Shown: positions 14,377-50,076 of the stretch, in pieces
Layout: each line of letters begins with the position of its first letter
Numbering within the stretch: position 1 is the stretch's first letter
Assembly: GCA_052139675.1 (NCBI GenBank)
Contig: JBKQWE010000033.1
Location: 12,122 to 76,121, forward strand
Direction of reading: 5' to 3'
DNA: 64,000 nucleotides
From: Candidatus Brocadiia bacterium
GTDB taxonomy: Bacteria > Planctomycetota > Brocadiia > CAIUPP01
The notes under the pieces: model-generated
What the model was told of the DNA's origin: nothing
The model's database searches: none
The model's input: only the letters and a program-made list of their open reading frames with translations
Program-made: the position numbers and the translations under genes

Positions 14377-14617
14377 GGGATTTTTCTGCCGGCGGCTGAT
14401 CGGGCGCCGGCGAGAAGCTCCTCACAAACCCGCGATGGCTGCAAATATTGAATTATACCCTTGCCGCGAATATCCCGCAAGACGCCGGCGCCCGCGCGGC
14501 GACCTGTCGCAAATTGTTGCAACTTGCGGCTCGGACGTTGCTTGCGAGCTGCTGAAATGCCTGCTACTATTGGGCGATTGCGGAGGGCGCGCGGTCTTGA
14601 AAACCGGAGATGCTGCG

Positions 14618-18091: not shown

Positions 18092-18313
18092 CGTTTCCTT
18101 GGGCATGCGCATCCTCCAGGTTGATCGTTGGGAACCTGCTTGCCAGGATTCTATCATCCCCGAATGAAATAGCAACCGAGGTTCCGCGCCGGCGGCCAAG
18201 GACTTGCTTGACGGAGGCAACCTCGATTGCTAAACATGCTGTTGGATGCGTGATGGTCCTGCGGCGCGCGGCCGCAGGGCGAATTCCGGCTCGCGCAGGA
18301 GGCTTCGAACGCC

Positions 18314-19846
18314 ATGGCCGTTCAGATGCGGCGGATCGGATTGGCTCGGACGGCGGTGCTGTTGCTCCTTCTGATCAGCGTCTCGGCGGCTGCCGATACG
18401 CTTACGCTCAAGCCTTCCGGCAAGCCGCGCCCTTTGCAAGGCCCCATTTTCGGGGCTTCGACGACGGCGTTTTACGAACGGCTCCTGGAGGACCCGGCCA
18501 AGGTCGCCGTGCTGAAAACGATGGAGATAGGCCTGCTGCGTTTCCCCGGCGGCTCAGACTCCAACTTCTACAACTGGCGCACGGGGCTGATCGAGATCCA
18601 GGAGAAGCCGGACAGTTCGGCCTACGTGCAGTTCTGGGTTAAAGCCGCGGCCAACATCGCGCGCGGCAAGCCGAAGGGGGTGAGCTTTGAGCAGTTCGAG
18701 CCCTTCGCGCGGGAGATCGGAGCGCAGGTCGTTTTCGTCCCGAACCTGGAATCCTCCAGCGTCGAGGACCAGGTGGCATGGTTCAAGCGCCTCGCCGGCG
18801 AGGGCATCGTGCCGCAGCGGATCGAATTGGGAAATGAGTTCTGGGTCGCGATGGGCAACGATCCGACGAGCCTGGCGCACTGGCCCGATGAGCCGACCAG
18901 CATGCAGATCATGAAACAATATCTGGATGCGATCAAGCCCAGCTTGCCGGCCAATGTCAAGGTGGCCGTGCAGGCGGCCGCCGGCGCCATTGACGTGCGA
19001 AGGGGCCGATTCGGACAACGGCTTCGGAAATGGGATGACGACCTGCGGCCGGAACCCTGGTTCGACGCCGTCACGCTGCATCTCTATCCGCGTCTGCGCG
19101 AGGTGATGGGCGATCCCGAGGCCGGGGCGACGCCGCCGACGGAGGAGAACGCGGCGCAGCGCCTCAACGCCATGATGGCCCGCGTGGACGAAGGAGTGGA
19201 CCGCATCCTCCAGGACTTCGAACGCCGTTTGCCCGGCAAGGAACTCTGGATTACGGAATGGAACACGCGCGGCGCCAATCCGGTGGCCGACCGCGGCGAC
19301 GCCGGAGAGCCGATGTCGCCCGCGATGGAAATGCTGACCACGACGCGCATGGCCCTGGTTCAGCTCCGCCATCCCTCGGTGACGGCCTCGCTCTTGTTCA
19401 TGTACAGCTTCAGGCCGAAAGATTCCCACGCGATGTTCGTGCCGGACGGCCAAAGAAGCTACGCCCCGGTTCCCACGGCTGCCGCGTTCCGCTGGTTGAG
19501 CGAGGCGGCCAATCGGAGCAGCTCTTTCCAGCGCCTGGTCCAGGCGGACGAACGCTCGGTCGCGGGCGGCGGAGCGAAGACTGAATATTTTATTCCGGTC
19601 GAGGCGGGACTGTTCGAGTCGCCCGCGCGCACGACGCTTCTGCTGGAGAACGCGTCCGCCGCCGATCTTTCCTTCGATCCTTCAACATTATTTCAGGACC
19701 GCAAGCCCGACCGAGTTGAAACCCTCGCCACGTCCGGCCTTCTCGATCTCGATAAAAAAGCCGCAAGGATAGAGGAGCAAAACGCCGCGGGGCCGATCGC
19801 CATAAGACCATTCTCATTGACCCGAATCGTCTGGGATAAAAATTAG
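18314..19846 (+). CDS. secreted glycoside hydrolase, clan GH-A (GH39/GH79/GH30-like)
   Basis: Signal peptide. Acid/base motif IELGNEFW and nucleophile motif LWITEWN spaced as in clan GH-A (beta/alpha)8 enzymes. Confidence 0.55.
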   Translation: MAVQMRRIGLARTAVLLLLLISVSAAADTLTLKPSGKPRPLQGPIFGASTTAFYERLLEDPAKVAVLKTMEIGLLRFPGGSDSNFYNWRTGLIEIQEKPDSSAYVQFWVKAAANIARGKPKGVSFEQFEPFAREIGAQVVFVPNLESSSVEDQVAWFKRLAGEGIVPQRIELGNEFWVAMGNDPTSLAHWPDEPTSMQIMKQYLDAIKPSLPANVKVAVQAAAGAIDVRRGRFGQRLRKWDDDLRPEPWFDAVTLHLYPRLREVMGDPEAGATPPTEENAAQRLNAMMARVDEGVDRILQDFERRLPGKELWITEWNTRGANPVADRGDAGEPMSPAMEMLTTTRMALVQLRHPSVTASLLFMYSFRPKDSHAMFVPDGQRSYAPVPTAAAFRWLSEAANRSSSFQRLVQADERSVAGGGAKTEYFIPVEAGLFESPARTTLLLENASAADLSFDPSTLFQDRKPDRVETLATSGLLDLDKKAARIEEQNAAGPIAIRPFSLTRIVWDKN

Positions 19847-30654: not shown

Positions 30655-31641
30655 TTACTTTTCATCGTCCTCGTCCTCGTCCTCGTCGTCGTCCTCGTCG
30701 TCCTCGTCATCAGTCTCATCCTCGTCCTGCTCTTGCTCAGCCTCAGGAGCCGGCGCGGGAGGTGGTTCATCAACCGACGGGACGTCAGGCAGGACGATGC
30801 CGGAATCCTCATCGGGCCATTCGTCATCGGGCGGCTCTTCCGGTTCGGCGGAGGGCGCGGGCGCGGGGGATCCTTGCGGCGGCTCGGGAGGAAGCAGCGG
30901 CGGCGCCTGCACGCGTTCCTCCGGCGGGACGTACGTCAGCCAGATTTCGCCGAACGCCTCCGCCTGCTCCACGCGGAGGACCTGCTGCTTCACCAGTTCC
31001 AGCAGTGCGATGAACGTTCCGATCAGCCGCACGCGCGTCATCTGCCCCTGGAAAACGCCGGCGAAGGTCAAGCGCCCCGCCGCGCACATCGTCTCTTCCA
31101 GCTCGCGCTGGATTCTCTCCTGCGGCATGGGGTCGAAGACGAGATTGTGGCCGCCGCCGGTCTGCTGGAGGATCTTCGAGAACGCGTCGAACAGCGTCCA
31201 GAGGCTGACGCCGGCCGGCACTCCCGATACGGGACCGACCGTCCCGTCCGGCCGCTCGCCCGGCCGCGCGAACCGCTCCGACTGCAGCTCGGCCCGGTCG
31301 TTCAGCGCCAGCGCCGCCTCCTTGAAGCGCTTGTACTCGAGCAACTGGCGCACGAGCTCCATCCGCGGGTCGTCCGGCTCTTCCTCGGGCATGGGCTCCG
31401 GTTCGGGCGTCATCAGGCGCGACTTGATCTCGATCAATTGCGCCGCCATGACGATGAATTCGCCGGCGACGTTGATGTTCAGCTCGGTCATCAGCTCCAT
31501 GTACCGGAGGTACTGCTCGGTGATGCGCGCGATCGGGAGGTTCCACAGGTCCACCTCGGACTGGCGGATGAGGTACAGCAGCAGGTCGAGCGGGCCGCTG
31601 TAGGTGTCGAGTTCGACTTTATAATCGAGGCGATCGGTCAT
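30655..31641 (-). CDS. scpA: segregation and condensation protein A (ScpA) with long Pro-rich and poly-acidic C-terminal tail
   Basis: MTDRLDYKVELDTYSGPLDLLLYLIRQSEVDLWNLPIARITEQY is a canonical ScpA N-terminus. Start codon overlaps the upstream OYE stop (ATGA). C-terminal 80 aa are PPEPPQGSPAPAP... then DEDETDDEDDEDDDEDEDEDDEK. Confidence 0.8.
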   Translation of the reverse strand: MTDRLDYKVELDTYSGPLDLLLYLIRQSEVDLWNLPIARITEQYLRYMELMTELNINVAGEFIVMAAQLIEIKSRLMTPEPEPMPEEEPDDPRMELVRQLLEYKRFKEAALALNDRAELQSERFARPGERPDGTVGPVSGVPAGVSLWTLFDAFSKILQQTGGGHNLVFDPMPQERIQRELEETMCAAGRLTFAGVFQGQMTRVRLIGTFIALLELVKQQVLRVEQAEAFGEIWLTYVPPEERVQAPPLLPPEPPQGSPAPAPSAEPEEPPDDEWPDEDSGIVLPDVPSVDEPPPAPAPEAEQEQDEDETDDEDDEDDDEDEDEDDEK

Positions 31642-32774
31642 GACTTCGGCGGGAATAATCCGGGCGCGGGCGGCTTGAGGCGGCCGTCGGCGACCCGGGG
31701 ACAATGCACCGGCCCATTGCGGCGCGAGGAGCATTCGTTGCACGAGATGCACGTGGCGCGCGGCTGCCCGGCGCGGAGCCGCGCGACGAGGTCCGGCTCG
31801 GCGATGAACGGGCGCGAGACGGCGACGAAGTCCAGCCCGTCGCCCTCGAGCGCGCGGACCATGACCTCGTAGGAGCGGAACCCGCCGCAGGCGCCGACGG
31901 GCACGGCGCCGACCGCGCGCTTGATCTCCACGGCCTGCGTGAGATAGTACGCTTCCTCCTGCGGTTTCGGATCGCCCTTGCGCATGGGCGCGCAGCGCTC
32001 GTCGCCTTCGGCCATCCAGCCGCTGACCTCGATGGCGTCAATCCCTTCGGCGGCCAGGGCGCGCGCGGCCTCGCAGCTCTCGCCGAGCGACAGGCCGTCC
32101 TGGATGAAGTCCTCGCAGTTGAGCTTGACGCTGACCGCCAGGTTCGGCCCGGCGGCGGCGCGCGCGCGGCGGAACGCCTCGATCACGAAGCGGCGCCGGC
32201 GCTCCGGCGTGCCGCCCCATTCATCGGTGCGGCGGTTGGTGTGCGGCGAGAGGAATTCGCTGAGCAGATATCCGTGGGCGCAGTGGAGCTGGACGCCGTC
32301 GAAGCCGGCCTCGCGCGCGCGGCGGGCGGCCTGGCCGAAGGCGTCGAGCGTTTCCTCGATCTCGCGCGCGGTCATCTCGCGCGGGCGGACTCCGCCGCCG
32401 ACCGCGACGGCCGAAGGCGCGACCGGCTCGCTGACGAGATCAGCGGGCACCTGGCGGCCGCCGTGCGCGATCTGCATGAAGAGCCTGGTCTCCGCGCGCT
32501 CCTGGTGGACGGCCTCGGCGATCTGCCGCCACGGGCCGACCAGTTCGTCGGAGTGGATGCCGCTCTGCGTCGCCGCGGAACGGCCGTTCGGAAGGACGTA
32601 GGCGTAGCCGGAAACGATCCACGGCGCGCCGCCCCGCGCGAGCGCCACGTACATCTTGCGGATCGCCTCGCCGGGCCGGCCCTGCGCGTCGGCGGCGTTC
32701 TCGAAAGTGGCGGACCGCGCCAGGCGCCCCGCGACGGTCACCGGCCCCGCGCGCATCGGTCGGAAAAGGATCAC
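31638..32774 (-). CDS. NADH:flavin oxidoreductase, Old Yellow Enzyme family, with C-terminal Cys-rich extension
   Basis: N-terminus LFRPMRAGPVTVAGRL matches the OYE consensus (LF.P..iG...l.NR). TIM-barrel FMN region (HGGRQV, CAHGYLLSEFLSP). C-terminal CISCNECS...HCP. Confidence 0.75.
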   Translation of the reverse strand: MILFRPMRAGPVTVAGRLARSATFENAADAQGRPGEAIRKMYVALARGGAPWIVSGYAYVLPNGRSAATQSGIHSDELVGPWRQIAEAVHQERAETRLFMQIAHGGRQVPADLVSEPVAPSAVAVGGGVRPREMTAREIEETLDAFGQAARRAREAGFDGVQLHCAHGYLLSEFLSPHTNRRTDEWGGTPERRRRFVIEAFRRARAAAGPNLAVSVKLNCEDFIQDGLSLGESCEAARALAAEGIDAIEVSGWMAEGDERCAPMRKGDPKPQEEAYYLTQAVEIKRAVGAVPVGACGGFRSYEVMVRALEGDGLDFVAVSRPFIAEPDLVARLRAGQPRATCISCNECSSRRNGPVHCPRVADGRLKPPAPGLFPPKS

Positions 32775-37723: not shown

Positions 37724-37984
37724 TCAGTCGTGGTCGGGGCGGTCGTCGCCGAACTGTTCTCTCAGCCGCTCGAAGCGGCTGGCGTAGATCATCTCGAACA
37801 GTTCGTCGCGCCCGGGGAAAAGCTCCTCGCACAGCTCGCGCAGCTTTTCCACCTGGATCACAATATCAATTTGCGGCAGGTCTGTCGAGAGGATGAGCAC
37901 GGCGATCCGGTCCGCCTCGCGCTGGAGGAGCGTCATGTTCCGGCGCGCGCCATGAAGCAGCTCATTCGGCAATTCGTGCTTCAT
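37724..37984 (-). CDS. small hypothetical protein (86 aa) translationally coupled to the mazF-like gene
   Basis: Its ATG overlaps the mazF-like stop (ATGA at 37981-37984). Balanced composition. 22 bp upstream of the YhaM-like gene. Confidence 0.4.
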   Translation of the reverse strand: MKHELPNELLHGARRNMTLLQREADRIAVLILSTDLPQIDIVIQVEKLRELCEELFPGRDELFEMIYASRFERLREQFGDDRPDHD

Positions 37985-38310
37985 TCGGCAAACATCTCCG
38001 CCAGGACCGCCAGAACCAGCTTCTGCGTGGCGGCGCCCATTCGGCCCAAGTGCTTCACGAAGCGCACTTTATCAATGGTCCGAACCTGATCGAGAACGAT
38101 CTGGCCGTCCTTGCCAGCGAAACTGCACGCGACGCGAGTGGGGTACTCGCGTCCTCGGGTCGTCATGGGCGCCACGATGACCGTGGCGATGTGGCGGTTC
38201 ATCTCGTCGGGCGAGATCACCAGGCACGGACGGGTCTTCCTGACCTCGCTGCCGACGGTCGGGTCGAGGTTCACCAGGAAAACGTCAAACCGGCGGGCTA
38301 CCACTGCCAT
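37981..38310 (-). CDS. mazF: type II toxin, MazF/PemK family endoribonuclease
   Basis: FDVFLVNLDPTVGSEVRKTRPCLVISPDEMN is a canonical PemK/MazF N-terminal motif. Confidence 0.8.
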   Translation of the reverse strand: MAVVARRFDVFLVNLDPTVGSEVRKTRPCLVISPDEMNRHIATVIVAPMTTRGREYPTRVACSFAGKDGQIVLDQVRTIDKVRFVKHLGRMGAATQKLVLAVLAEMFAE

Positions 38311-38564
38311 TCGCTCTTATCCCACCGGCCGGGCACTTCCAGGACCAGGCGATCGTCCTGTTGGGCGGCCATCGCGGCAAAGCGCCTGGACCAGCCTTCC
38401 CGCGTGCGACGCGCCGCGCGGATGACCAGCCGGTCCGATTGAACGGCCATCTCGACTTCCGGCCCAATGTCCAACTGGTCCAGGACAACCTTGGGGATGC
38501 GAATTCCCCGCGAGTTTCCGACTCGGACTATGCGCGCTCTCAGCAGGGTAGCCATTGGCCTCAT
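38298..38564 (-). CDS. mazE: type II antitoxin, MazE / AbrB-SpoVT family
   Basis: IVRVGNSRGIRIPKVVLDQLDI swapped-hairpin AbrB/MazE motif. 13-nt overlap with the toxin gene. Confidence 0.7.
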   Translation of the reverse strand: MRPMATLLRARIVRVGNSRGIRIPKVVLDQLDIGPEVEMAVQSDRLVIRAARRTREGWSRRFAAMAAQQDDRLVLEVPGRWDKSEWQW

Positions 38565-38756
38565 CCTCGCCTGTAGGTAATTACATTGTATATACTCTCG
38601 GCCTTCCGGTCAAGCGACATGCGGCGATCCCGGAACCTGCATTCCGCCAAGGCGTGTGCCGGCGGAGTGTCATTCGTTCGCGGACGACACTCATTGTGGA
38701 TCTTGGTACATGGGGATCAATGAAAGAGTTGACAGAAAGCCAGCTCGTCCGGCGCG

Positions 38757-39137
38757 CTATTTCCGGGTACCGTCGCCGGCTTTGCCGGGGGTCTTTTTAA
38801 GATTGGCCACCAGATGCTTGCTGAGGTTCCTCAGCAGGCGTGCGCGGCGCTCGGCGGAGATCTGGCCGATCGAGCCCAAAATCCTCTGACGGGGCAGCAC
38901 AGCCAGGAATCCCAGACGGATCAGGGAATCTGCAACGAGACCTGATGCGGCAAAATCGGAATCCCGCTTGGAGATGACCTCGTCGAATTCGGGCACGGCC
39001 TGATGGAGTTGGGTGGTGATGCCACAGGCGAGGAAATCCCCATACGGCGGAAGTTCGCGAAGCAAAAGCGCCGGTCGGTTCTTCATCATCCCGTCAGCCT
39101 GCATCAGCGGCGTCAGGATGATGTCGCCTTCGTTCAT
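38757..39137 (-). CDS. second PemK/MazF-like toxin
   Basis: MNEGDIILTPLMQADGMMKNRPALLLRELP resembles the PemK-family N-terminus (GDIvl....g.e.k.RPalvl). Confidence 0.55.
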   Translation of the reverse strand: MNEGDIILTPLMQADGMMKNRPALLLRELPPYGDFLACGITTQLHQAVPEFDEVISKRDSDFAASGLVADSLIRLGFLAVLPRQRILGSIGQISAERRARLLRNLSKHLVANLKKTPGKAGDGTRK

Positions 39138-40519: not shown

Positions 40520-41974
40520 ATGGAAGGCAGCAGTAGGAAGAAGCAAGGCGCATACTATACTCCGGACCACGTCGTCCAGTCACTTGTCCGATGGGTAGCG
40601 CGAAAGCAATCCGACCGCCTGCTGGACCCCGCATGCGGGGACGGGCGTTTTCTGAAACCGCATCCGAACAGTGTAGGTGTAGAACAGGATCCCGATGCAG
40701 CGCGACTCGTGCATCAGCGGGTTCCAGGTTCGCTGATGCATCAAGGGGATTTTTTCGCGTGGGCGGCTCAAACCCGGGAACGGTTTGAGTGCGCCGCCGG
40801 CAATCCACCGTTCATACGCTACCAAAGTTTTGCAGGTCCGGTCCGGCAGGAGGCGCTCTCCTTCTGCGCCAGCCATGGCGCACGCTTCTCTTCGCTGACT
40901 TCTTCGTGGGCGCCGTTCATAGTAGCTGCAGCAACGGTCCTCAAGCCAGGCGGAAGGATGGCATTTGTCGTTCCGGCCGAAATCGGCCACGCGCCCTATT
41001 CGCGCCCTTTGGTCGAATATCTAGCGGGGCATTTCAAACGCGTCCACGTGGTTGCGGTGCGGGAGAAATTGTTCCAAGAGCTCTCGGAAGACTGTTGGCT
41101 GCTTTCGGCGTCAGGATTTGGCGGCAGCACGGAGCAACTTCTGATTTCGTCCACAGGCCGTTTTGAATACGCGGCTGCGCCGCCCAAGGTCTCCCTCCGT
41201 GTAAGCATGAGTGAATGGCGCACGTGGAACTGCCGCTTGCGACCCTTCCTGTTGGCCGCAGACGTCCGCGAACTTTATCGCCAAGCCGCCAGTGACGTCG
41301 GCACGCAAAGACTGAAGGACCTTGCCCATGTCGGCATTGGGTATGTCACGGGAGACAATAAGTTTTTCCACATGAGTCCATCACACGCGAAAGGATGGCG
41401 AATTCCCGGAACCTTTCTTCAACCGACGATCAGGAACGGCCGCATGCTGGACAGGCCAGCCATCACGCCTGACCGGGTGGAGGTGTGGCGACGCCGGGAC
41501 GAGCAGAATTTCCTGTTGCGGATACGCAGGACTGATCAAGTTCCATCGCAGCTCCGTAATTACCTTGAATCCAATGCGGGCCGCAAGGCGCGGGCAACGT
41601 ACAAGTGCAGGCATCGAGAGCCCTGGTACGTAGTGCCGGACGTGACTATTCCCGACGGGTTTCTCTCTTACATGAGTGGGTCGAGGCCGGCTTTGATGGC
41701 AAATCAAGCCGGATGTGCGGGTACAAACTCTGTTCATATGATTACCCTTGCCCCCAATGTGCGAATGGCAGAACTTCAAAGCGCCTGGGATCGGCCTTTG
41801 ACCCGCCTCAGTTGTGAGGTCGAAGGCCATCCATTGGGCGGAGGAATGCTCAAACTTGAGCCACGTGAAGCCGGCCGTCTTGTGCTTTCACGAAAAAGAT
41901 TCGACTCGACGGAAGAGATGCGCTTGATTGAAGCTGGCATAAGCACCCTGCAACGATGGAGGCATTGTGGCTAA
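40520..41974 (+). CDS. N6-adenine DNA methyltransferase, gamma class (TaqI-like), with C-terminal target-recognition domain
   Basis: Motif X/I GAYYTPDHVV...LLDPACGDGRFL and motif IV GNPPF. ggagg RBS 5 nt upstream. Confidence 0.8.
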   Translation: MEGSSRKKQGAYYTPDHVVQSLVRWVARKQSDRLLDPACGDGRFLKPHPNSVGVEQDPDAARLVHQRVPGSLMHQGDFFAWAAQTRERFECAAGNPPFIRYQSFAGPVRQEALSFCASHGARFSSLTSSWAPFIVAAATVLKPGGRMAFVVPAEIGHAPYSRPLVEYLAGHFKRVHVVAVREKLFQELSEDCWLLSASGFGGSTEQLLISSTGRFEYAAAPPKVSLRVSMSEWRTWNCRLRPFLLAADVRELYRQAASDVGTQRLKDLAHVGIGYVTGDNKFFHMSPSHAKGWRIPGTFLQPTIRNGRMLDRPAITPDRVEVWRRRDEQNFLLRIRRTDQVPSQLRNYLESNAGRKARATYKCRHREPWYVVPDVTIPDGFLSYMSGSRPALMANQAGCAGTNSVHMITLAPNVRMAELQSAWDRPLTRLSCEVEGHPLGGGMLKLEPREAGRLVLSRKRFDSTEEMRLIEAGISTLQRWRHCG

Positions 41975-42815
41975 AGCGGCAACGAAATGCCAATGGCTCA
42001 GCCTTACCGATGCGTTACAAGCATTCGCTTTGTGCGTCGGCGGAACTCAGAGTGCGGCTCACATCCGCCCTCTCCATTGGTACGTTGGTTGCCGTCTGGT
42101 GATCGAAGGCGGGTTTCATCCTGACGAGATTACTCCTCGTCCGCCTCTGCTGGTAACTCCGCGGAGCGGCGGACGCTGCCTTGAATGGAATGCTTCCGCA
42201 GGCGGGACGGGCGAACGTACCATCCTCGGCGGCCTCAAGACTAAGGCCGTTGATGTGGTTGTAACCAAGGAGGGAATCGGCCCAGTGCTTGCAATTTCTA
42301 TGAAGGGCACTCTCAACGCATTTCGAAATCTGACCAATCGCATGGAAGAGGCCGTGGGAGATTGCACGAACCTTCACATCGCCTATCCTGCCTTGGTTTA
42401 CGGCTTCTTTCATGTCCTCAGAGCCAATCGCCAACAGCGAGGTACTCCGCCCAATGACGTAGCTATAAACGCCGACGGCAGCGTTACAGAGGCTATCAGC
42501 CGCTACCATGACGTGCTCGCCCGTCTGGCCGATCGGAAAGATGTGCGCGCGGACGCAACGAAGTATGAGGCGATTGCCTTGGCTTTGGTGAGTTCTGATA
42601 AAGCGGCAGCAGGCCAAGTCATGAAGGCATTCCCGAAGGCTGAGAGTCCTCTTCTCCTTCAGGATTTCTTCAGTAAGCTGTACCGCCAATATGACGAGCG
42701 CTTTGTCTACGCCGCGCCTGCGCTCGAATCGGTCACCCGCCGGCTCGAATGGCAACTTCACTCACCTGTTGCGGAAGACGTCCACCTCGCAGGCTATAAA
42801 GCGCGCTTGAGTTAA
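41967..42815 (+). CDS. candidate Type II restriction endonuclease partner of the upstream MTase
   Basis: 8-nt overlap with the MTase gene. No family recognised. GC lower than flanks. Position is the only evidence for the REase assignment. Confidence 0.45.
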   Translation: MAKAATKCQWLSLTDALQAFALCVGGTQSAAHIRPLHWYVGCRLVIEGGFHPDEITPRPPLLVTPRSGGRCLEWNASAGGTGERTILGGLKTKAVDVVVTKEGIGPVLAISMKGTLNAFRNLTNRMEEAVGDCTNLHIAYPALVYGFFHVLRANRQQRGTPPNDVAINADGSVTEAISRYHDVLARLADRKDVRADATKYEAIALALVSSDKAAAGQVMKAFPKAESPLLLQDFFSKLYRQYDERFVYAAPALESVTRRLEWQLHSPVAEDVHLAGYKARLS

Positions 42816-42849: not shown

Positions 42850-43731
42850 TCATTCGAAGAAGACGGACGGGAAGGAATCGCAGGCGGCGAGCATCTTGCG
42901 GGTGGCGCGGAGTTCCTCTTCGGTGATCGGGCCGAGTTTGGAGAGGCGCTCGATCTCCTCCGCGGTGCGCAGCGGCGGCGGTTGCGCTTTGAGGAGCCGC
43001 AGCTTCTCGCTCGACGGCTCGGAGAAATTGTCCGGATCGGTCTCCATTGCGCGTCGGAACGCGCCGCAGGCGGAGTGGCGCTCGCCGAGGATCTCCCAGA
43101 TCAGCCCCATCCACCAGTAAATCTGGCCGTCGTAATCGTCCTGCCCCAGGCCCTGCTCGAAGGCGTTGATCGCCTGGCGGCAGGCGCTCTGGAACGCCGC
43201 CGGGTTTTTTACGGCCACGGTCCCCTTGCGTTCGCCCGCGGCCGTGAATTTCTCCACCGCGCCGGTGTAGAGGTTGTATCCGAGCGCGAAATGGACCAGC
43301 GGATGGTCGCATCCCAGCCGCAGCGCGCGCCGGAGCTCATGCACGACCTCGGTCGTGTGTCCGAGGTGGTAGTCGCACTCGGCGAGCAGCAACTGGCGGA
43401 CCGTCTCCTGCTGCGGCGCGCCGCAGTTCATCTGGCGCAGCGAGCGGGTCAGCCACTCCAGCAGGTCGTGCGTCTGGCGGCCCGAGCGGATGATCTTCTC
43501 CAGGTCCAGATTGCCGGCCCTCACGATGCGGCAGACGGTCTGGTGCCGCCGACACTCGCAGCGAAGGAAGACGTGGAAGGCCTGCCGGAGCTTGGCGGAG
43601 TCCATCTCCGAGTCGCCGAGCAGTTCGTAAATGAGCCGGTAAAAGGCCCGGCAGAACGGCGGGAGCGTCGCGTACTGCTCCAGCCGCCTGAGCGTTGCGT
43701 TGATCGCGGCGTATCTGCCGGAATCTTCCAT
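42850..43731 (-). CDS. hypothetical helical-repeat protein (293 aa)
   Basis: Protein-like composition, Cys/His-rich N-terminal half, helical-repeat-like C-terminal half (GYNLYTGAVEKF..., QIYWWMGLIWEILGERHSACGAFRRAMETDPDN). Confidence 0.4.
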   Translation of the reverse strand: MEDSGRYAAINATLRRLEQYATLPPFCRAFYRLIYELLGDSEMDSAKLRQAFHVFLRCECRRHQTVCRIVRAGNLDLEKIIRSGRQTHDLLEWLTRSLRQMNCGAPQQETVRQLLLAECDYHLGHTTEVVHELRRALRLGCDHPLVHFALGYNLYTGAVEKFTAAGERKGTVAVKNPAAFQSACRQAINAFEQGLGQDDYDGQIYWWMGLIWEILGERHSACGAFRRAMETDPDNFSEPSSEKLRLLKAQPPPLRTAEEIERLSKLGPITEEELRATRKMLAACDSFPSVFFE

Positions 43732-43912: not shown

Positions 43913-44019
43913 AGCGGTCGTCCGTTATATCGCAGGTTTGACTTCGCGAATGGCGCGGCCTAAAATGGCCCGCAACGTCGTCTGCGGCAATCCGATGCGA
44001 CCACCGCGTCGTCTCGCGT

Positions 44020-45831
44020 GTGAGAAATCCATTGAGCAAGAAGCAGGCCGCAAAACCGCGCAGCCGGGCGATTCTTTGGCCCGAGGAGCTTGCCCGCCCT
44101 CCTTCTGGCGGGGTCGCCCGCGCTCAAAGCGGAGCGAGGGAAAAATTGCGCGCCGCCGCGAAACCCGGACCGAAGCGCAAGCCCGCGCCGCCGGGCCGCG
44201 CGAAACCGCCGGCAAAAGCGCCCGTTCCGCCGCCGGCTGCGCCTGCGAAGAAACCCGCTGAAGCGCCCGTCGCCCACCGCCGCACGGCCGAGCAGCTCGC
44301 CAAGCAGCAGCGCGAGATTTCGGTCAGCGAATTCTTCACGAAGAACCGCCACCTGCTCGGGTTCGACAACCCGCGCAAGGCGCTCCTGACGGCGGTGAAG
44401 GAGGCGGTGGACAACTCGCTCGACGCCTGCGAAGAGGCCGGCATTCTGCCCGAAGTGAGCATCGCCGTCGCCCAGGCCGACGGCGTCGAGGACCGGTTCC
44501 GCGTGACGATCGAGGACAACGGCCCGGGCATCATGCCTGCGCAGGTGCCGAGGATTTTCGCCAAGCTGCTCTACGGCTCGAAGTTCCACCGGATGCGCAT
44601 GGCGCGCGGGCAGCAGGGCATCGGCATCAGCGCGGCGGGGATGTACGGCCAGTTGACGACCGGGAAGCCGACGCGGATCATCTCGCGCGCGGCGTCGCGC
44701 CGCAAGGCGTACCGCTGCGAGCTGCTGCTCGATACGAAGAAGAACGAGCCGACCGTGGTGAAAGAGGAAGAGGTGGACTGGGACCGCCCGCACGGCACGC
44801 GCGTGGAGATTGAGCTGGAGGCGCGTTACACCCGCGGGCGCCAGTCGGTCGAGGAGTACCTGCAGCAGGTGGCCATCGCCAACCCGCACGCGACGATCGT
44901 GTTCGAGCCGCCGGAGGGCGAGCCGCTGCGCCTCGCGCGCTCCTCCAACGTGCTCCCGCCGGAACCGCGCGAGATCAAGCCGCACCCGTACGGCATCGAG
45001 CTGGGGATGCTGATCGGCATGCTCCAGTCCACACGCTCGCCGCGCGCATCATCGTTCCTCCACGCCGATTTCTCGCGCGTGAGCAGCCCGGTGGCGGCGG
45101 ACATCTGCCGGCGCGCGAACGTGAACCCGAACGCGCGGCCCGCGCGCGTCGGCCGCGACGAGGCCGAGCGGCTCTACACGGCGCTGCAGGCGACGAAGCT
45201 GATGAAGCCGCCGATGGACTGCGTGGTGCCGATCGGCGAGGAGCTGCTGCTCAAGGGCCTCAAGCGCGGCGTCGAGGCGGACTTCTATCACACCGTCACG
45301 CGGCCGCCGGCGGTCTATCGCGGCAACCCGTTCCAGGTCGAGGCCGGGCTGGCGTACGGCGGGCAGTTGCCGGCCGAGGAGCCGTGCCGGCTCATCCGGT
45401 TCGCCAACCGCGTGCCGCTGCTCTACCAGCAGTCCGCGTGCGCCGTCACCCGCGCCGCCGCGACCACCGCTTGGCGCAACTACGGCATCCAGCAATCGCA
45501 GGGGCAGCTTCCCGTCGGCCCGCTCGCCATCGTGGTCCACATCGCCAGCGTCTGGGTGCCGTTCACCTCCGAGAGCAAGGAAGCCGTCGCGCACTACCCG
45601 GAGATCCTCAAGGAGATCAAGCTGGCGCTGCAGGAATGCGGGCGGAAGCTCGGGCTGTTCGTGCGCCACCGCCGGCGCGAGGCCGACGCGGAACGCAAGC
45701 GCCAGTACATCACCAAGTACATCCCGCACATCGGCATCGCGCTGCAGGAGATTTTAGGGCTGACCGAGAAGGAAGAATCGCAGGTGGTGAGCAAGCTCGA
45801 GGACATGCTGGAGAAAAGCCGGAAACTGTAA
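44020..45831 (+). CDS. DNA topoisomerase VI subunit B homologue (Bergerat/GHKL ATPase plus transducer) with Lys/Pro/Ala-rich N-terminal tail
   Basis: GTG start. Collinear similarity to archaeal Top6B recalled from memory: ISVSEFFTKNRHLLGFDNPRKALLTAVKEAVDNSLDA (Bergerat N-box), DNGPGI (G1), KPHPYGI, GNPFQVEAGLAYGG (transducer), KYIPHIGIALQEI. First 90 aa are AKPPAKAPVPPPAAPAKKPAEAP H1-like repeats. Confidence 0.85.
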   Translation: MRNPLSKKQAAKPRSRAILWPEELARPPSGGVARAQSGAREKLRAAAKPGPKRKPAPPGRAKPPAKAPVPPPAAPAKKPAEAPVAHRRTAEQLAKQQREISVSEFFTKNRHLLGFDNPRKALLTAVKEAVDNSLDACEEAGILPEVSIAVAQADGVEDRFRVTIEDNGPGIMPAQVPRIFAKLLYGSKFHRMRMARGQQGIGISAAGMYGQLTTGKPTRIISRAASRRKAYRCELLLDTKKNEPTVVKEEEVDWDRPHGTRVEIELEARYTRGRQSVEEYLQQVAIANPHATIVFEPPEGEPLRLARSSNVLPPEPREIKPHPYGIELGMLIGMLQSTRSPRASSFLHADFSRVSSPVAADICRRANVNPNARPARVGRDEAERLYTALQATKLMKPPMDCVVPIGEELLLKGLKRGVEADFYHTVTRPPAVYRGNPFQVEAGLAYGGQLPAEEPCRLIRFANRVPLLYQQSACAVTRAAATTAWRNYGIQQSQGQLPVGPLAIVVHIASVWVPFTSESKEAVAHYPEILKEIKLALQECGRKLGLFVRHRRREADAERKRQYITKYIPHIGIALQEILGLTEKEESQVVSKLEDMLEKSRKL

Positions 45832-45840
45832 CGGAAAGTC

Positions 45841-45964
45841 CAAAGTGCAAACTGAAAAGTGCAAAATGGAAAATCATTGCGCGCGGCGGCGCTTTCGTAC
45901 GGGCGCAGCCCGATCCGTTCCACATTTTTCAGTTTGCACTTTGCACTTGGCACTTTGCATTTCC
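45841..45964. promoter_or_regulatory. operator-like repeat array upstream of the orphan MTase
   Basis: 18-bp inverted repeat caaagtgcaaactgaaaa (45841-45858) / ttttcagtttgcactttg (45926-45943) flanking a GC-rich mini-hairpin, plus three direct gcacttTG half-sites (gcactttgcacttggcactttgcat) ending 17 nt before the GTG start. Confidence 0.45.
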
Positions 45965-45980: not shown

Positions 45981-46826
45981 GTGAAAGATTCCAAAAACCT
46001 GGTCTACCTCGGCGACAACCTGCCGATCCTTCAGCGGTTGGCGGCGGGCTCAGTCCATCTCATCTACGTTGACCCGCCGTTCAACACCGGCGGCCGGCAG
46101 AGCCGCCTGCAACTGAAGACCGTGCGCTCGGAGGACGGCGACCGCGTCGGATTCGGCGGGCGCCGCTATCGGACCGTCCGGCTCGGGAGCCGCGCGTTCG
46201 CGGACCGGTTCGAGGACTACATCGCGTTCCTGCGGCCGAGGATGGTCGAGGCCCGCCGCGTCCTGGCGCCGGCCGGCTCGATCTACGTCCACCTGAATTA
46301 CCGCGAGGCGCATTACGCCAAGGTGATGCTCGACGAGATCTTCGGCCGCGAGTGCTTCCTGAACGAGATCGTCTGGGCCTACGATTACGGGGCGCGGACG
46401 CGGATGCGCTGGCCGGCGAAGCACGACAACATCCTCTTCTACGTGAAAGACCCGGAGCATTACACGTTCAACGCCGACGCGGTGGACCGCATCCCGTACA
46501 TGGCGCCGGAGCTGGTCGGCGAGGAGAAGGCGCGGCGGGGCAAGCTGCCGACCGACACCTGGTGGCACACGATCGTCAGCCCGACGGGCAAGGAGAAGAC
46601 CGGCTACCCGACGCAGAAGCCGCTCGGCATCCTGCGCCGGATGATCCTCGCCTCATCGAACCCGGGCGACCTGGTGCTGGACTTCTTCGCCGGCAGCGGC
46701 ACCACCGGCGTCGCCGCGCACGAGTCGGGCCGCCGGTTCATCCTGGTGGACGACAACCCGCAGGCGTTCGAGGTCATGCGAAAACGCCTGAAGGGAATGA
46801 ACGTCCGGTTCGTCAGCGCGCGCTGA
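45981..46826 (+). CDS. DNA methyltransferase, beta class (N4/N6, PF01555-like), orphan
   Basis: GTG start (in frame, first start after the repeat array). Motif IV IYVDPPFN near the N-terminus and motif I DLVLDFFAGSGTTGVAA near the C-terminus (beta-class order). No endonuclease gene adjacent. Confidence 0.8.
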   Translation: MKDSKNLVYLGDNLPILQRLAAGSVHLIYVDPPFNTGGRQSRLQLKTVRSEDGDRVGFGGRRYRTVRLGSRAFADRFEDYIAFLRPRMVEARRVLAPAGSIYVHLNYREAHYAKVMLDEIFGRECFLNEIVWAYDYGARTRMRWPAKHDNILFYVKDPEHYTFNADAVDRIPYMAPELVGEEKARRGKLPTDTWWHTIVSPTGKEKTGYPTQKPLGILRRMILASSNPGDLVLDFFAGSGTTGVAAHESGRRFILVDDNPQAFEVMRKRLKGMNVRFVSAR

Positions 46827-48034: not shown

Positions 48035-49747
48035 CTACCAGACCCTGGCCGATTCGGCGGGCTCGGAGTCCTCCCGAATGTCCTTTTCTTCCTCGAGGTA
48101 AATCCGGATCGTGTTGCCGTCCTTGCCGCGCTTGACGGTGAGTCGCCGGTCGCCTACCTGGTAGCGGATCTCGTCCGGCTTGCCGAGGAACGGGGCGACG
48201 GCTTTGCGGACCTCATCGCCGCGGAAGTCTTTCACGATCAGCCAGCTTCCCGATCCGTCGGCGACTGGGCCGCTCTTGCCGGACATCTCGGCGGGCGCGA
48301 GGGAATCGAGCGTCACACACAGGCCGCCTTTGCGGACGAAGGCGCGGACCGCGTCCATCGTCTGCGGGCTGATCTGCACGCCGGTGAGGAAGACCAGTTT
48401 TAGCCCCGCGAGTTCCTTCGCGCCGGCGAGGTGGTCGTACATCACCGCGCCGCGGAGCGGGCAGAAGAAGTCGTGCGGGAGCCCGGCGTAGCTGCGATTG
48501 TGGAACGACAGGCCGCCTTCGCGCGTCTGGCCGTGAGTCAGCAGGCTCCAGATCTGGAACCAGGCGGCCGTCGCGGGCGTGCTCTTCAGGTTCGCCGCGC
48601 CGTAGAGCGCGTCGGGCAGCCACGAGTCGGCCTGGCCCCAGCAGGAGTCGTCGAACCGGACGATGGCCACCTCCGGGCGGATGTCGCGGAAGTCATACGG
48701 CCGCGGATGGGCCGGCACGTATTCCTTCACGAACCACTCGTAGACCTTGCCGTAGGCGGTGGTCTCGTACCGGACGACGCCGTTCTCCTCTTTCCGCTCG
48801 ATGAGCCCGCGGATGTTCTCGACGAAGATGCGCCGGGCCCCGATCCAGTAGGCGTAGAGGAGCGAGCAGCGCAGTTCCTCCGGCGGATGGCCCGGGAAGC
48901 CGGAGAGCCCCCAAAGGTCCGGCGTGACGCAGAACTCGCGCCCGTACTCGCGCGCCGCGCCCATCGCGATGGCGGCGAAGACCGGATCAATGCCTTCCTT
49001 CAGGAACTTGGTAGCCGGGTCGAAGCCGGCCCGCGCGAAGGTGTGGAACATGACGGGGAAGACGTGCTCGCTCATGGGCGTGACGCCCGCGCGGCGGTAG
49101 TTTTCCGCGACGGCCCCGGCGCTGGAGCAGACGGCGTTATAGGCCTGTTCCAGCGTCATCCCGTCGGTGGCCGCGAAGTACGGATGCACCCGGCCGGTGG
49201 AGCGGTCGTCCGACCCGCCGTTGGTGTTGCTGCCGCGGCGCATCTGGCCGTGCTCGGCCTCGTCGTAGAGCACGCCGCGGAACTCCGGATGCTGCACGGC
49301 GATCTCCAGCGTCCGCCCGGCGATGTCCCAGCGGTGCGTCCCGTCCGGGTGGGCGAGGACGTCCTTGCCGTCCTTGTCCAGGATGTCGCCTTCCTTGGTG
49401 TAATTGGTGACCTCCTGGTTGGCGAAGAAGGTCAGGTGGGCCTGGCGGCACGCCGCGCAGAAATCGCCAAGGCCCTGCTCGGAGGCTTCCCATCGGCGGC
49501 CGCGGCCGGCGTCATTCCGCTCAGGTCCGAACTGGCAGACGATGAAGTCCGCGCCGAGGTCGCGGACGGCTTTCAGATAAACCGCGAGGGACTCGGCGTC
49601 GCGCGGCGCGCCGCCTTCGAGGCCGAACTCGCAAGTGGATTTGGACATCGCGTTTGTCTCCTGCGCGCCCTCCGCGCCAATTGAGGCGGCCCCGCCTGAG
49701 ATCAAGGCCGCCAGGGCAAGCGTTCCCAGGACGGAGGGCCCCATCAT
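48035..49747 (-). CDS. secreted hypothetical protein (about 570 aa)
   Basis: Start at MMGPSVLGTLALAALISGGAASIGA (signal peptide). The 38 upstream codons of the track ORF are the translation of a (GAGGAC)n hairpin and were excluded. Confidence 0.5.
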   Translation of the reverse strand: MMGPSVLGTLALAALISGGAASIGAEGAQETNAMSKSTCEFGLEGGAPRDAESLAVYLKAVRDLGADFIVCQFGPERNDAGRGRRWEASEQGLGDFCAACRQAHLTFFANQEVTNYTKEGDILDKDGKDVLAHPDGTHRWDIAGRTLEIAVQHPEFRGVLYDEAEHGQMRRGSNTNGGSDDRSTGRVHPYFAATDGMTLEQAYNAVCSSAGAVAENYRRAGVTPMSEHVFPVMFHTFARAGFDPATKFLKEGIDPVFAAIAMGAAREYGREFCVTPDLWGLSGFPGHPPEELRCSLLYAYWIGARRIFVENIRGLIERKEENGVVRYETTAYGKVYEWFVKEYVPAHPRPYDFRDIRPEVAIVRFDDSCWGQADSWLPDALYGAANLKSTPATAAWFQIWSLLTHGQTREGGLSFHNRSYAGLPHDFFCPLRGAVMYDHLAGAKELAGLKLVFLTGVQISPQTMDAVRAFVRKGGLCVTLDSLAPAEMSGKSGPVADGSGSWLIVKDFRGDEVRKAVAPFLGKPDEIRYQVGDRRLTVKRGKDGNTIRIYLEEEKDIREDSEPAESARVW

Positions 49748-49776
49748 TCCAACTGGTTTCACTTCGCGCCTCCAAT

Positions 49777-49842
49777 CGTCCTCGTCCTCGATCTCGTCCT
49801 CGTCCTCGAACTTCCGTTCAGAACGGCCGAGGACGAGGACGA
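49777..49842. repeat. (CGTCCT)n/(GAGGAC)n perfect palindrome hairpin
   Basis: tcgtcctcgtcctcg - aacttccgttcagaacggc - cgaggacgaggacga. 15-bp perfect stem, preceded by a tandem copy of the left arm. Confidence 0.6.
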
Positions 49843-50076
49843 GTACGATACTGCCGCCCATACGAATGACGCGCCGCGCTCCAGTCGTCCGATGCTCGTC
49901 ATGAGTGGAAACTACCCCTCCGCAGGCGGACTGTCAAGGTGGAAAAGCGGTTCGGGCGGCCGGACTGGAATCCGGCTTGCGGAATCGAGCGCAAAGGGTA
50001 AAATGAACGGCAGGACGTCTCAGCACCGCAGGGGCATGCATTCATGCATTAGGTTGCAGATCGGACGCGCAACGGC

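Follow-up and report, generated by a model that had tools for sequence, protein, structure and literature searches.

Does a topoisomerase VI B subunit whose gene has no top6A next to it still serve as one half of a canonical enzyme, or has it taken on a role of its own? The question is raised by top6B in the 64,000-nt stretch of DNA analyzed here (hereafter, the window), which derives from a planctomycete labeled 'Candidatus Brocadiia bacterium' in GenBank. A preliminary description of the locus had entertained both answers: a lone B subunit that partners an unlinked A subunit, or a stand-alone GHKL ATPase in a different, possibly conflict-related role.

Identity and start of the gene

The gene is an ordinary, intact B (ATPase) subunit of bacterial topoisomerase VI. 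The protein scores 701.1 bits against the NCBIfam equivalog NF003218 (cut-off 274) and 550.2 bits against TIGR01052 (cut-off 380.7), and the M. mazei Top6B chain 2q2e_B aligns with residues 85-589 without rearrangement (E 1.6e-155). Along with the Topo-VIb_trans (1.2e-59) and HATPase_c matches, these results bear out the collinearity with archaeal Top6B that the preliminary description had proposed.

Three start codons come into consideration. The TTG at 44032 agrees with JGI gene calls and with relatives in an alignment with P0001 and JGI cluster members, and we infer that it is the start used; a GTG at 44020 would give 603 aa, and a TTG at 44146 would give 561 aa, the form implied by a 561-aa GenBank protein with PGAP-style naming. 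That record (MGO8703250.1, 'DNA topoisomerase VI subunit B') is identical to Top6B at 560 of 561 positions from residue 39 onwards, and a near-identical public MAG therefore already carries the correct Top6B annotation. L091, the corresponding locus in the public assembly, matches the window at 99.86% identity and differs in a few bases, which explains why exact look-ups of the window protein, from starts 44020 and 44032, returned no record. Upstream, the candidate promoter matches the sigma-70 consensus at 10 of 12 positions, and three such sites occur in the region against 0.2 expected, counting consensus matches only. Coordinates of all features are collected in Table 1.

Table 1. Features of the top6B locus (window coordinates; residues numbered from TTG 44032).
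Feature	Coordinates	Strand	Description
TPR protein, divergent from top6B	42850..43731	-	293 aa; weak TPR hits; conserved upstream neighbor in closer relatives
Candidate sigma-70-like promoter of top6B	43938..43966	+	TTGACT-17-TAAAAT; upstream of the two long starts
top6B CDS	44032..45831	+	599 aa from TTG 44032; ORF 44020..45831 intact
Basic low-complexity N-terminal extension	44032..44283	+	Residues 1-84; A20 P18 K11 R10; net charge +17
GHKL (Bergerat) ATPase domain	44284..44781	+	Residues 85-250; Pfam HATPase_c, HATPase_c_3; alignment to M. mazei Top6B
Basic loop and H2TH region	44782..45207	+	Residues 251-392; alignment to M. mazei Top6B
Transducer domain	45208..45699	+	Residues 393-556; PF09239 1.2e-59, profile positions 1-159 of 159
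C-terminal end of transducer helix and tail	45700..45828	+	Residues 557-599; conserved in solitary and operon-linked proteins
AT-rich palindromic element in top6B-MTase spacer	45836..45962	.	Inverted repeat; 39-nt arms of AAAGTGCAAA units
Orphan beta-class PF01555 DNA methyltransferase	45981..46826	+	281 aa; Pfam N6_N4_Mtase 3.4e-47; PADLOC MTase_II 1.3e-142

Catalytic and DNA-sensing motifs

Judged by alignment, Top6B has every catalytic and DNA-sensing element intact. The ATPase domain holds the N-box residues E124 (aligned with M. mazei E44) and N128, the G1 box DNGPGI (162-167) and the G2 box GQQGIG (193-198), with the motif residues invariant in alignment A1. The H2TH module is present, as an ungapped alignment to 2q2e_B residues 209-311 indicates, and it is preceded by a basic loop, TRGR (267-270), that is the counterpart of the M. 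mazei KGRR loop. Three of the residues mutated in M. mazei Top6B (PMC5922973) fall in the H2TH; R263, K268 and K308 of that protein align with H344, R349 and K389, so that two of the three basic residues are kept and R263 is replaced by histidine. Within the transducer we find WRNY (481-484; the WKxY motif), the switch lysine K516 in SESK and the stalk arginine R538. The basic loop, the WKxY motif and the stalk arginine are DNA-sensing elements essential in M. mazei topo VI (PMC5922973). Conservation extends through the C-terminal tail to its last residues, with invariant Y, I, P and H of KYIPHIG and S and R of KSRK (alignment A1). All the motifs singled out in the preliminary description (DNGPGI, KPHPYG and GNPFQVEAGLAYGG) were found, and the Bergerat-fold set, comprising the catalytic Glu, the Mg-binding Asn, G1 and G2, is complete, as is the switch lysine.

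A basic N-terminal extension

Ahead of the ATPase domain lies a highly basic stretch, previously described both as a Lys/Pro/Ala-rich tail and as a prefix of about 90 residues of histone-H1-like repeats. The basic stretch is real and sits at the N-terminus, not the C-terminus. Its length follows the start codon: the GTG at 44020 gives 88 residues, and the TTG codons at 44032 and 44146 give 84 and 46. The repeats did not hold up, as TRF found no tandem repeat in the extension DNA and the sequence is of low complexity.

Among relatives, the extension varies in length and sequence and is present in most planctomycete Top6B, including the operon-linked P0106; its dN/dS of 0.29-0.69 is looser than that of the Top6B core. 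Lys/Ala/Pro-rich 'histone H1-like' tails occur on bacterial DNA-binding proteins such as actinobacterial TopA and HU. The extension is likewise highly basic, of low complexity, fast-evolving and terminal on a DNA enzyme, a resemblance in composition only. Going by its charge alone, this lineage-wide addition is most likely a non-specific DNA tether.

Gene neighborhood and synteny

The methyltransferase downstream of top6B has homologues (70-91% identical) in the same downstream position in loci L001, L002, L005 and L086. It is linked to Top6B in five of the six clade loci, in the slot where relatives have Top6A, which answers in the affirmative whether Top6B and a PF01555 methyltransferase co-occur in other genomes of the clade; it is absent beside Top6B in L004, and unrelated insertions separate the two genes in L001 and L002. 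Its GC3 is 0.93 and its dN/dS 0.14-0.26, and a Pfam scan of the window ORFs returned no restriction partner for it. To us the linkage looks like synteny retained between two core genes, and any functional coupling would be putative.

On the other side, the TPR protein has equivalently placed homologues with 48-83% identity in L001, L002 and L004 (GC3 of the window copy, 0.88), and the gene order Nuc_deoxyrib_tr / HD-OB / DUF72 / TPR / top6B is kept in relatives. A type II restriction-modification (R-M) pair at 40520-42815 is foreign in composition, with a GC3 of 0.58-0.61 against 0.91 for Top6B. Toxin-antitoxin genes occupy 37981-39137, including a MazEF-like pair at 37981-38564. Relatives lack both sets in this interval, so they are later insertions. 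The preliminary description had placed the whole neighborhood in an accessory region; native GC3 in Top6B, the methyltransferase and the TPR gene, together with the conserved order, contradicts this and confines the insertions to these two sets.

The 'repeat element' reported between top6B and the methyltransferase proved to be the AT-rich palindrome of Table 1. Six of the eight window matches to its motif (exact or with one mismatch) lie inside the element, against 1.4 expected, and its predicted RNA fold has an energy of -60.3 kcal/mol (z = -5.5). Related loci lack the palindrome.

Top6A in the window and beyond

The preliminary description had seen no Top6A nearby, and none is present in the whole window by Pfam scans of its approximately 38 ORFs, by tblastn or by a six-frame Top6A HMM search, for which positive controls scored about 700 bits. 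The locus holds no Top6A pseudogene remnant, and no Top6A lies within 10 kb of top6B in five clade relatives.

Wider searches gave similar results. When the nearest outgroup's Top6A (from L087) served as query, none of the 120 matches listed could be tied to the clade, and the closest non-self groups among them, P0122 and P0123, are operon-linked. The 120 matches listed for P0149, a candidate orphan Top6A lineage, led to Abyssobacteria-like and other groups, none tied to the clade. A high-GC Top6A motif scanned against metagenomes gave, among the 120 matches listed, none from metagenomes or contigs with a clade Top6B. An identity of 0.69 +/- 0.08 is expected of a clade Top6A; among the listed matches that reach at least 69% identity to the Top6A of that outgroup, we saw no counterpart of the Top6B clade in the form of some 15-35 Top6A clusters, which, given the scope of those matches and the expected identity, is weak but not negligible evidence against an unlinked top6A.

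Identity profiles of Top6A and Top6B in a mirror-tree comparison had too small a dynamic range for use. Tetranucleotide similarity to the window ranked the known clade loci at the top and operon-type contigs equally high, so it cannot place solitary Top6A contigs. Solitary-Top6A contigs and clade loci had no neighboring genes in common, and a cluster look-up assigned one solitary Top6A protein to Kiritimatiellia. A divergent type of solitary Top6A, recognizable by ETKGMFERL and FTDGDPYGYF, occurs in L125, L151 and L208 and may be a candidate for the clade. Bacterial Top6A goes under the name 'DNA topoisomerase IV subunit A' in GenBank, which makes searches by text misleading.

Unlinked topo VI genes in bacteria

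Top6B of the window belongs to a coherent clade, some 35 sequence clusters in size, without the usual top6B-top6A operon, with an identity span of 71-95% and a core identity of 95% to the nearest relative. Candidate genomes of the clade are the MAGs that encode MGO8703250.1 and MGD1002507.1 and, provided it represents one genome, ENA assembly ERZ25039471, whose contig_23353 matches the window. Three outgroup lineages retain the operon. In L003, L087, L088 and L093, Top6B is 64-70% identical to that of the window and Top6A follows directly or overlaps.

Bacterial topo VI had been called rare in the preliminary description, a view that does not survive at least 8000 scored Top6B candidates, all with E <= 1e-10, and 556 GTDB stretches encoding relatives. 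The best 80 of these 556, retrieved with the window Top6B, span Planctomycetota, Acidobacteriota, Eisenbacteria, Myxococcota and others; the closest among the matches listed is 67% identical, and the genome of the window and its clade are not among them. The enzyme is documented for at least 17 bacterial families, Pirellulales among them, often in the absence of topo IV (PMC11302465).

Among the matches listed, 17 of 76 evaluable bacterial GTDB loci show Top6B with no Top6A in the visible flank, including coherent Acidobacteriota and Brocadiaceae-like clades. Conversely, Top6A stands without Top6B in 9 of 66 evaluable metagenomic loci among the matches listed. Since solitary Top6A genes exist in other bacteria, split topo VI systems can be regarded as normal.

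Constraint on the solitary protein

It is through the transducer domain that Top6B touches Top6A in the archaeal topo VI structures. Within the clade, constraint on the Top6A-contacting C-terminus is on a par with that on the remainder of Top6B, with dN/dS values of 0.13-0.29 in the core and 0.03-0.18 in the C-terminal segment (residues 546-599). Site by site, the constraint on solitary Top6B also matches that on operon-linked planctomycete proteins, with a Spearman correlation of 0.77 between the per-site entropies of the solitary clade and those of 39 operon-verified sequences. The solitary/operon entropy ratio is 0.59 in the C-terminal segment against 0.54-0.67 in the other domains, and per-site entropy revealed no selectively relaxed domain in the solitary protein.

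Discussion

Comparison with characterized relatives places the protein firmly among B subunits. Over about 505 residues it is collinear with the Top6B of M. mazei (PDB 2Q2E chain B; E 1.6e-155) and Saccharolobus shibatae (2ZBK, 1MX0; E 2.8e-97), with the same order of GHKL, H2TH and transducer domains and with the catalytic Glu and Asn, G1 and G2 boxes, switch lysine, WKxY motif and stalk arginine all conserved. In contrast to the M. mazei protein (621-aa chain), it adds a basic N-terminal extension of up to 84 residues, has RGR in place of KGRR in the basic loop and matches only up to a point short of the C-terminal Ig-like domain; unlike archaeal top6B, the gene is bacterial and does not adjoin top6A.

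Closer by are the planctomycete top6B-top6A operons (Phycisphaerales CP070723, our L003; L087, L088 and L093; Pirellulales, PMC11302465), whose Top6B is 64-70% identical, shares the motifs and in most cases carries an extension of this kind. Their two genes overlap or abut, whereas the window and about 35 related clusters have no Top6A within 10-44 kb and usually a PF01555 methyltransferase next. The other clades with putatively unlinked topo VI genes (Acidobacteriota, including 'Acidobacteria bacterium Mor1' CP011806, and Brocadiaceae-like MAGs) likewise lack Top6A within 10 kb of Top6B; they come from different phyla and show no methyltransferase linkage. The solitary Top6A of Kiritimatiellia offers the reverse case, an A subunit with no Top6B nearby.

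Topo VIII often takes the form of a fused A-B polypeptide. Its Bergerat fold and transducer, and those of Mini-A, are homologous to the present ones at the family level, but both are separate subfamilies borne by plasmids or viruses (PMC7671362), and the window gene is chromosomal, compositionally native and above the topo VI equivalog cut-offs. Assignment to Topo VIII was rejected, with no phage matches, native GC3, conserved synteny and an ORF that contains no A-type domain. Eukaryotic TOPOVIBL/MTOPVIB and the MORC-like GHKL ATPases of prokaryotes are partners or relatives of the Spo11/Top6A machinery with degenerate or rearranged ATPase and transducer modules; in contrast, the present Top6B has all-canonical motifs and no PADLOC defense match. 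A degenerate Top6B-like Spo11 partner of the TOPOVIBL/MTOPVIB kind is ruled out by ATPase motifs that are canonical and invariant.

Our reading is that top6B very probably belongs to a canonical bacterial topo VI whose A subunit is unlinked; a partner encoded elsewhere fits everything testable in the window and in relatives. By analogy with the archaeal enzyme, two B subunits would dimerize via their GHKL domains on ATP and capture one DNA duplex, and the transducer would relay this capture to two Top6A subunits, which would cut and reseal a second duplex, the outcome being decatenated and relaxed chromosomal DNA. In this lineage, top6A would have become separated from top6B and would now lie at an unlinked chromosomal site. 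Expression of top6B may start from its own candidate promoter in the divergent intergenic region, and the downstream methyltransferase is a conserved syntenic core gene, whose coupling to topo VI, if any, would be putative.

The absence of Top6A from the window and five clade loci, and of any clade-tied Top6A among the matches listed in the Top6A searches and the metagenome scan, could also mean that the clade lost Top6A and that Top6B is a stand-alone DNA-dependent GHKL ATPase or DNA clamp, perhaps binding in a chromatin-like manner via its extension or joined by a new partner such as the methyltransferase, which occupies the downstream slot in five of six loci under purifying selection. We consider this unlikely. 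The ATPase core is no more constrained than the Top6A-contacting C-terminus, the DNA on which the retained stalk, WKxY and basic-loop elements act is that in the grip of the A-subunit gate, and solitary genes are not alone in having the basic extension; moreover, the methyltransferase is missing in L004 and set apart by insertions in L001 and L002, and other bacteria do have solitary Top6A genes. That Top6A was lost across the approximately 35-cluster clade and Top6B now acts as an ATP-gated DNA clamp or crossing sensor, perhaps coupled to the methyltransferase in the old top6A position, seems to us very unlikely.

With an R-M pair and MazEF-like genes within 6 kb and a DNA methyltransferase directly downstream, a conflict or defense component also comes to mind, namely a MORC/paraMORC-type GHKL ATPase with neighboring methyltransferases in a defense island. 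This is highly improbable: Top6B is an equivalog-level protein, not a MORC-like one, and has no PADLOC match, the R-M pair stands out by its GC3 and is absent, like the toxin-antitoxin genes, in relatives, and the downstream methyltransferase has native codon usage and no restriction partner. Assignment to defense-associated GHKL ATPases (MORC/paraMORC, R-M linked) was rejected on the missing PADLOC match and the foreign composition of the R-M insertion, which is absent in relatives. The stand-alone or conflict-related role floated in the preliminary description is likewise unsupported, in view of the PADLOC result, the lack of plasmid or phage relatives, native codon usage, conserved synteny and an extension also found on operon-encoded Top6B. 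Topo VIII and Mini-A are precedents for type IIB enzymes on mobile elements (PMC7671362), and accessory genes had been noted nearby, yet we give almost no credence to a Topo VIII-like mobile enzyme or a recently transferred accessory copy: there are no phage matches, full-length plasmid matches are confined to haloarchaeal megaplasmid Top6B at about 45% identity, topo VI models far exceed their cut-offs, and codon usage is native, with chromosomal synteny conserved across a clade of 71-95% identity. Two further plasmid matches, unannotated, are short and weak (23-38% of the query, 29-36% identity). The missing neighbor might finally suggest a decaying relic after loss of the operon partner, a negligible prospect that the selection analysis effectively refutes, with an intact frame, all catalytic residues, dN/dS well below 1 across the clade and 95% core identity to the nearest relative.

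For now, the gene counts as a routine housekeeping gene. In bacteria, topo VI genes stand apart much more often than the 'invariably tandem' archaeal picture implies, in about one-fifth of the evaluable loci listed and in several coherent clades; nearly all planctomycete Top6B have a long, highly basic N-terminal extension, and one clade has kept top6B beside an orphan DNA methyltransferase. Since we know of no bacterial topo VI that has been characterized biochemically, these observations on linkage, extension and methyltransferase are leads rather than findings. Should the A subunit prove absent from the genomes of the clade, this would be the first free-standing Top6B, and it would bear on the evolutionary history of type IIB enzymes and of the B-like partners of Spo11.

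Identity of the top6B gene and its start

The window gene is a canonical, already annotated bacterial topoisomerase VI B subunit of a Planctomycetota lineage whose A-subunit gene is very probably unlinked. The open reading frame exists on the forward strand (44020..45831) and its product is a full-length Top6B on every sequence test, reaching 701 bits against the NCBIfam equivalog NF003218 'DNA topoisomerase VI subunit B' (cut-off 274) and 550 bits against TIGR01052 (cut-off 381), with Pfam Topo-VIb_trans covered over the entire profile (1.2e-59) and HATPase_c matched too. The collinearity with archaeal Top6B claimed in the preliminary description was borne out by the M. mazei structure 2q2e_B (1.6e-155, residues 85-589), the S. 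shibatae structure also matching at 2.8e-97, and the motifs quoted there were found in the protein. GenBank MGO8703250.1, titled 'MAG: DNA topoisomerase VI subunit B [Candidatus Brocadiia bacterium]' and placed in the closest homologue's 90% cluster, is identical to residues 39-599 at 560/561 positions; public data thus already carry the right annotation for this gene.

Since the gene lacks an ATG start, three start codons are possible (see table), the last being presumably the annotated start of the GenBank protein because the lengths agree. The position of a sigma-70-like promoter candidate and a dN/dS of 0.29 for the first 84 codons (against the closest relative) favour a long form. From the 44032 start, the extension comprises 84 residues (A20, P18, K11, R10) with a net charge of +17. 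A Lys/Pro/Ala-rich tail of histone-H1-like repeats had been described: the basic stretch is real, but it is N-terminal, of low complexity and not a tandem repeat. Extensions of at least 30 residues occur in 73 of 89 other planctomycete-type Top6B clusters (median 57 residues, net charge +16), and the Top6B of cluster P0106, whose gene overlaps top6A, carries one as well. A basic N-terminal extension is thus common among planctomycete Top6B and not peculiar to the window gene.

Features of the window and methyltransferase homologues at related loci
Feature	Locus	Coordinates	Strand	Remarks
917-aa ORF	window	14282-17035	+	native codon usage, no Pfam/PADLOC match
530-aa ORF	window	18254-19846	+	native codon usage, no Pfam/PADLOC match
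ScpA frame, stop-to-stop	window	30655-32037	-	460 codons; ScpA domain at 156-368 only
Putative MazF/MazE-type toxin-antitoxin pair	window	37981-38564		two overlapping small ORFs, read by eye
Putative PemK-like ORF	window	38757-39137		read by eye
Type II R-M pair	window	40520-42815		between DUF72 and TPR gene; GC3 0.58-0.61; missing there in a relative
Sigma-70-like promoter candidate	window	43938-43966	+	upstream of all three top6B starts
top6B start option 1	window	GTG 44020	+	
top6B start option 2	window	TTG 44032	+	599 aa; closest relative and JGI gene calls begin here
top6B start option 3	window	TTG 44146	+	561 aa, the GenBank protein's length
AT-rich palindromic element	window	45836-45962		127 nt, top6B-MTase spacer; 39-nt arms of AAAGTGCAAA units
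Orphan PF01555 methyltransferase (MTase)	window	45981-46826	+	281 aa; no restriction partner; native codon usage
608-aa ORF	window	48035-49861	-	native codon usage, no Pfam/PADLOC match
MTase homologue	L001	2833-3675		downstream of top6B
MTase homologue	L002	5323-6171		downstream of top6B
MTase homologue	L005	11945-12808		downstream of top6B
MTase homologue	L086	11676-12518		41 bp gap from top6B

Separation of top6B from top6A

Top6A, the DNA-cutting partner subunit, had been reported as not encoded nearby, and the whole 64-kb window agrees: none was detected in about 38 plausible ORFs scanned against Pfam, by tblastn with a planctomycete Top6A query, or by a Top6A HMM over the six reading frames, for which control loci gave about 700 bits. 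Among scored Top6B candidates (all 8000 at E <= 1e-10), about 35 clusters group with the window protein in one coherent clade at core identities of 71% or more, its nearest relative being 95% identical. Neither Top6A nor a remnant of it lies within 10 kb flanks of top6B at any of the five clade loci examined (L001, L002, L004, L005, L086). Just outside the clade top6B and top6A overlap or abut, as at L087 (the nearest outgroup), L088, L093 and L003 (a complete Phycisphaerales genome), so that the loss of linkage is a derived feature of the whole clade.

The tandem top6 arrangement is described as invariable in archaea (PMC7671362), and topoisomerase VI is reported from no fewer than 17 families of bacteria, Pirellulales among them, in many cases where topoisomerase IV is missing (PMC11302465). 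Among matches listed for GTDB species representatives, 80 Top6B loci were surveyed: Top6A lies downstream in 59, is absent from the available flank in 17 (in 11 of these both flanks extend for 5 kb or more) and could not be judged in four. Among the 17 are a coherent clade of Acidobacteriota, to which CP011806 belongs (Acidobacteria bacterium Mor1, a chromosome-length record of 5.99 Mb), and a Brocadiaceae-like clade. When metagenomes were scanned for a high-GC Top6A motif, the matches listed comprised 57 Top6A loci with Top6B adjoining and nine solitary ones, one solitary type being from Kiritimatiellia. The split arrangement is thus less unusual than the literature implies, and frequent in bacteria.

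L007 and L008 (GTDB MAGs JACQVQ01 and JBMFFR01) have Top6B proteins 90% identical; L007 has Top6A 3 kb downstream whereas L008, one of the 17, has none within 10 kb. P0227, a Top6A sharing 91% identity with the L007 protein, lies on a 423,253-bp NCBI contig; should this contig belong to the MAG of L008, as it might, the pair would exemplify recent unlinking.

Genomic setting

The window is ordinary chromosome, encoding ScpA, fumarase, LexA, LpxD, RmuC, glycoside hydrolases and PEP-CTERM proteins. Its LpxD has an exact match in ENA assembly ERZ25039471 (contig_23353, 110,775 bp), a contig 99.86% identical to the window across 5.1 kb. As the ScpA domain occupies a limited part of its frame, a long N-terminal extension is possible there.

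GC3 is native in top6B (0.91), the downstream MTase (0.93) and the upstream TPR gene (0.88), and foreign in the R-M pair (neighbours 0.85-0.93), in which an Eco57I-like N6 methyltransferase (PADLOC MTase_II, 1.3e-87) overlaps a 282-aa protein with a weak REase_II match and no Pfam domain. The putative toxin-antitoxin ORFs, without PADLOC match, occupy the interval from the HD-OB gene to DUF72, which contains nothing in relatives. Relatives keep the order Nuc_deoxyrib_tr / HD-OB / DUF72 / TPR / top6B without the R-M pair or toxin-antitoxin genes; given this and the native GC3, 'accessory region', as the preliminary description had it, is wrong for top6B itself. Its suggestion of a conflict-related role is not supported, for Top6B has no PADLOC match and the R-M genes close by were inserted later. 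Nor is a mobile-element origin supported, there being no phage matches and, among plasmids, full-length matches only to haloarchaeal megaplasmid Top6B (45%); decay was ruled out by dN/dS.

Synteny with an orphan methyltransferase

Co-occurrence of Top6B with a PF01555 MTase was found in the window and at L001, L002, L005 and L086, with homologues 70-91% identical to the window MTase; at L004 it does not adjoin top6B. The synteny spans Top6B identities of 71-95% while every other downstream gene varies, and the MTase is under purifying selection (dN/dS 0.14-0.26). Insertions in the spacer differ: two small genes at L001; a nucleotidyltransferase, a caspase-like peptidase and another gene at L002; the AT-rich palindrome in the window. 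We read the arrangement as an old synteny of two core genes; a functional coupling of the MTase with topoisomerase VI is possible. The palindromic element, missing from related loci, folds as RNA at -60.3 kcal/mol (z = -5.5) and holds six of the eight window matches to AAAGTGCAAA (exact or one mismatch); it may serve as a terminator or as an array of protein-binding sites, or be a small mobile palindrome.

The missing partner and the constraint on Top6B

No Top6A was assignable to the clade in the best 120 of 8000 matches to either the L087 Top6A or that of a candidate orphan lineage. By Top6A-versus-Top6B calibration, a clade Top6A is expected to be about 0.69 +/- 0.08 identical to both queries, right at the lower edge of the best 120, so that absence there is weak evidence. 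Mirror-tree, tetranucleotide similarity and shared-neighbour tests likewise placed none of the solitary Top6A contigs in the clade. A divergent Top6A lineage (L125, L151, L208; JGI Ga0102959_1000272, SDBU01018120.1, Ga0114951_10004666) has ETKGMFERL for ETAGMFQRL, FTDGDPYGYF for FVDCDPYG, and YYQAYNWG. L125 and L151 have no Top6B nearby; in L208 the Top6A runs off the contig, which prevents a judgement on its upstream side, and tetranucleotide usage is window-like, as is that of unrelated operon-type contigs. This lineage is a candidate for the Top6A of the window's clade, and more generally a candidate partner for some solitary Top6B clade. A second solitary type (TRATRRF, GGMFQRLQSH, AKWGLNYV) occurs on JGI contigs L188, L191, L106 and L189, and in L188 and L191 bears its own basic N-terminal extension, e.g. 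MARKPTRTTNGKRTRAERG. Many bacterial Top6A in GenBank MAG records are titled 'DNA topoisomerase IV subunit A'; text searches for the topoisomerase VI A subunit would miss them and ParC counts could be inflated.

With no A subunit assigned, it might be supposed that the clade lost Top6A and that Top6B took a new stand-alone role, a reading we consider very improbable. The ATPase residues and switch lysine are complete, predicting the catalytic competence that had been queried. The elements that the holoenzyme requires for DNA sensing (Wendorff and Berger, PMC5922973) are also kept, the basic loop as RGR, WKxY as WRNY and the stalk arginine as R538. Site-wise entropy correlates between the solitary clade and 39 operon-verified sequences (Spearman 0.77). 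In archaeal structures, the transducer end contacts Top6A; this C-terminal segment exhibits no extra relaxation (entropy ratio 0.59 against 0.54-0.67 in other domains), and dN/dS is 0.03-0.18 over the last 54 codons and 0.13-0.29 in the core. Indirectly, this is the constraint expected were a Top6A partner still present.

An unlinked A subunit remains our reading, and the leads that emerge are the frequency of split topoisomerase VI genes in bacteria, the basic N-terminal extension on planctomycete Top6B and the top6B-methyltransferase synteny of this clade.
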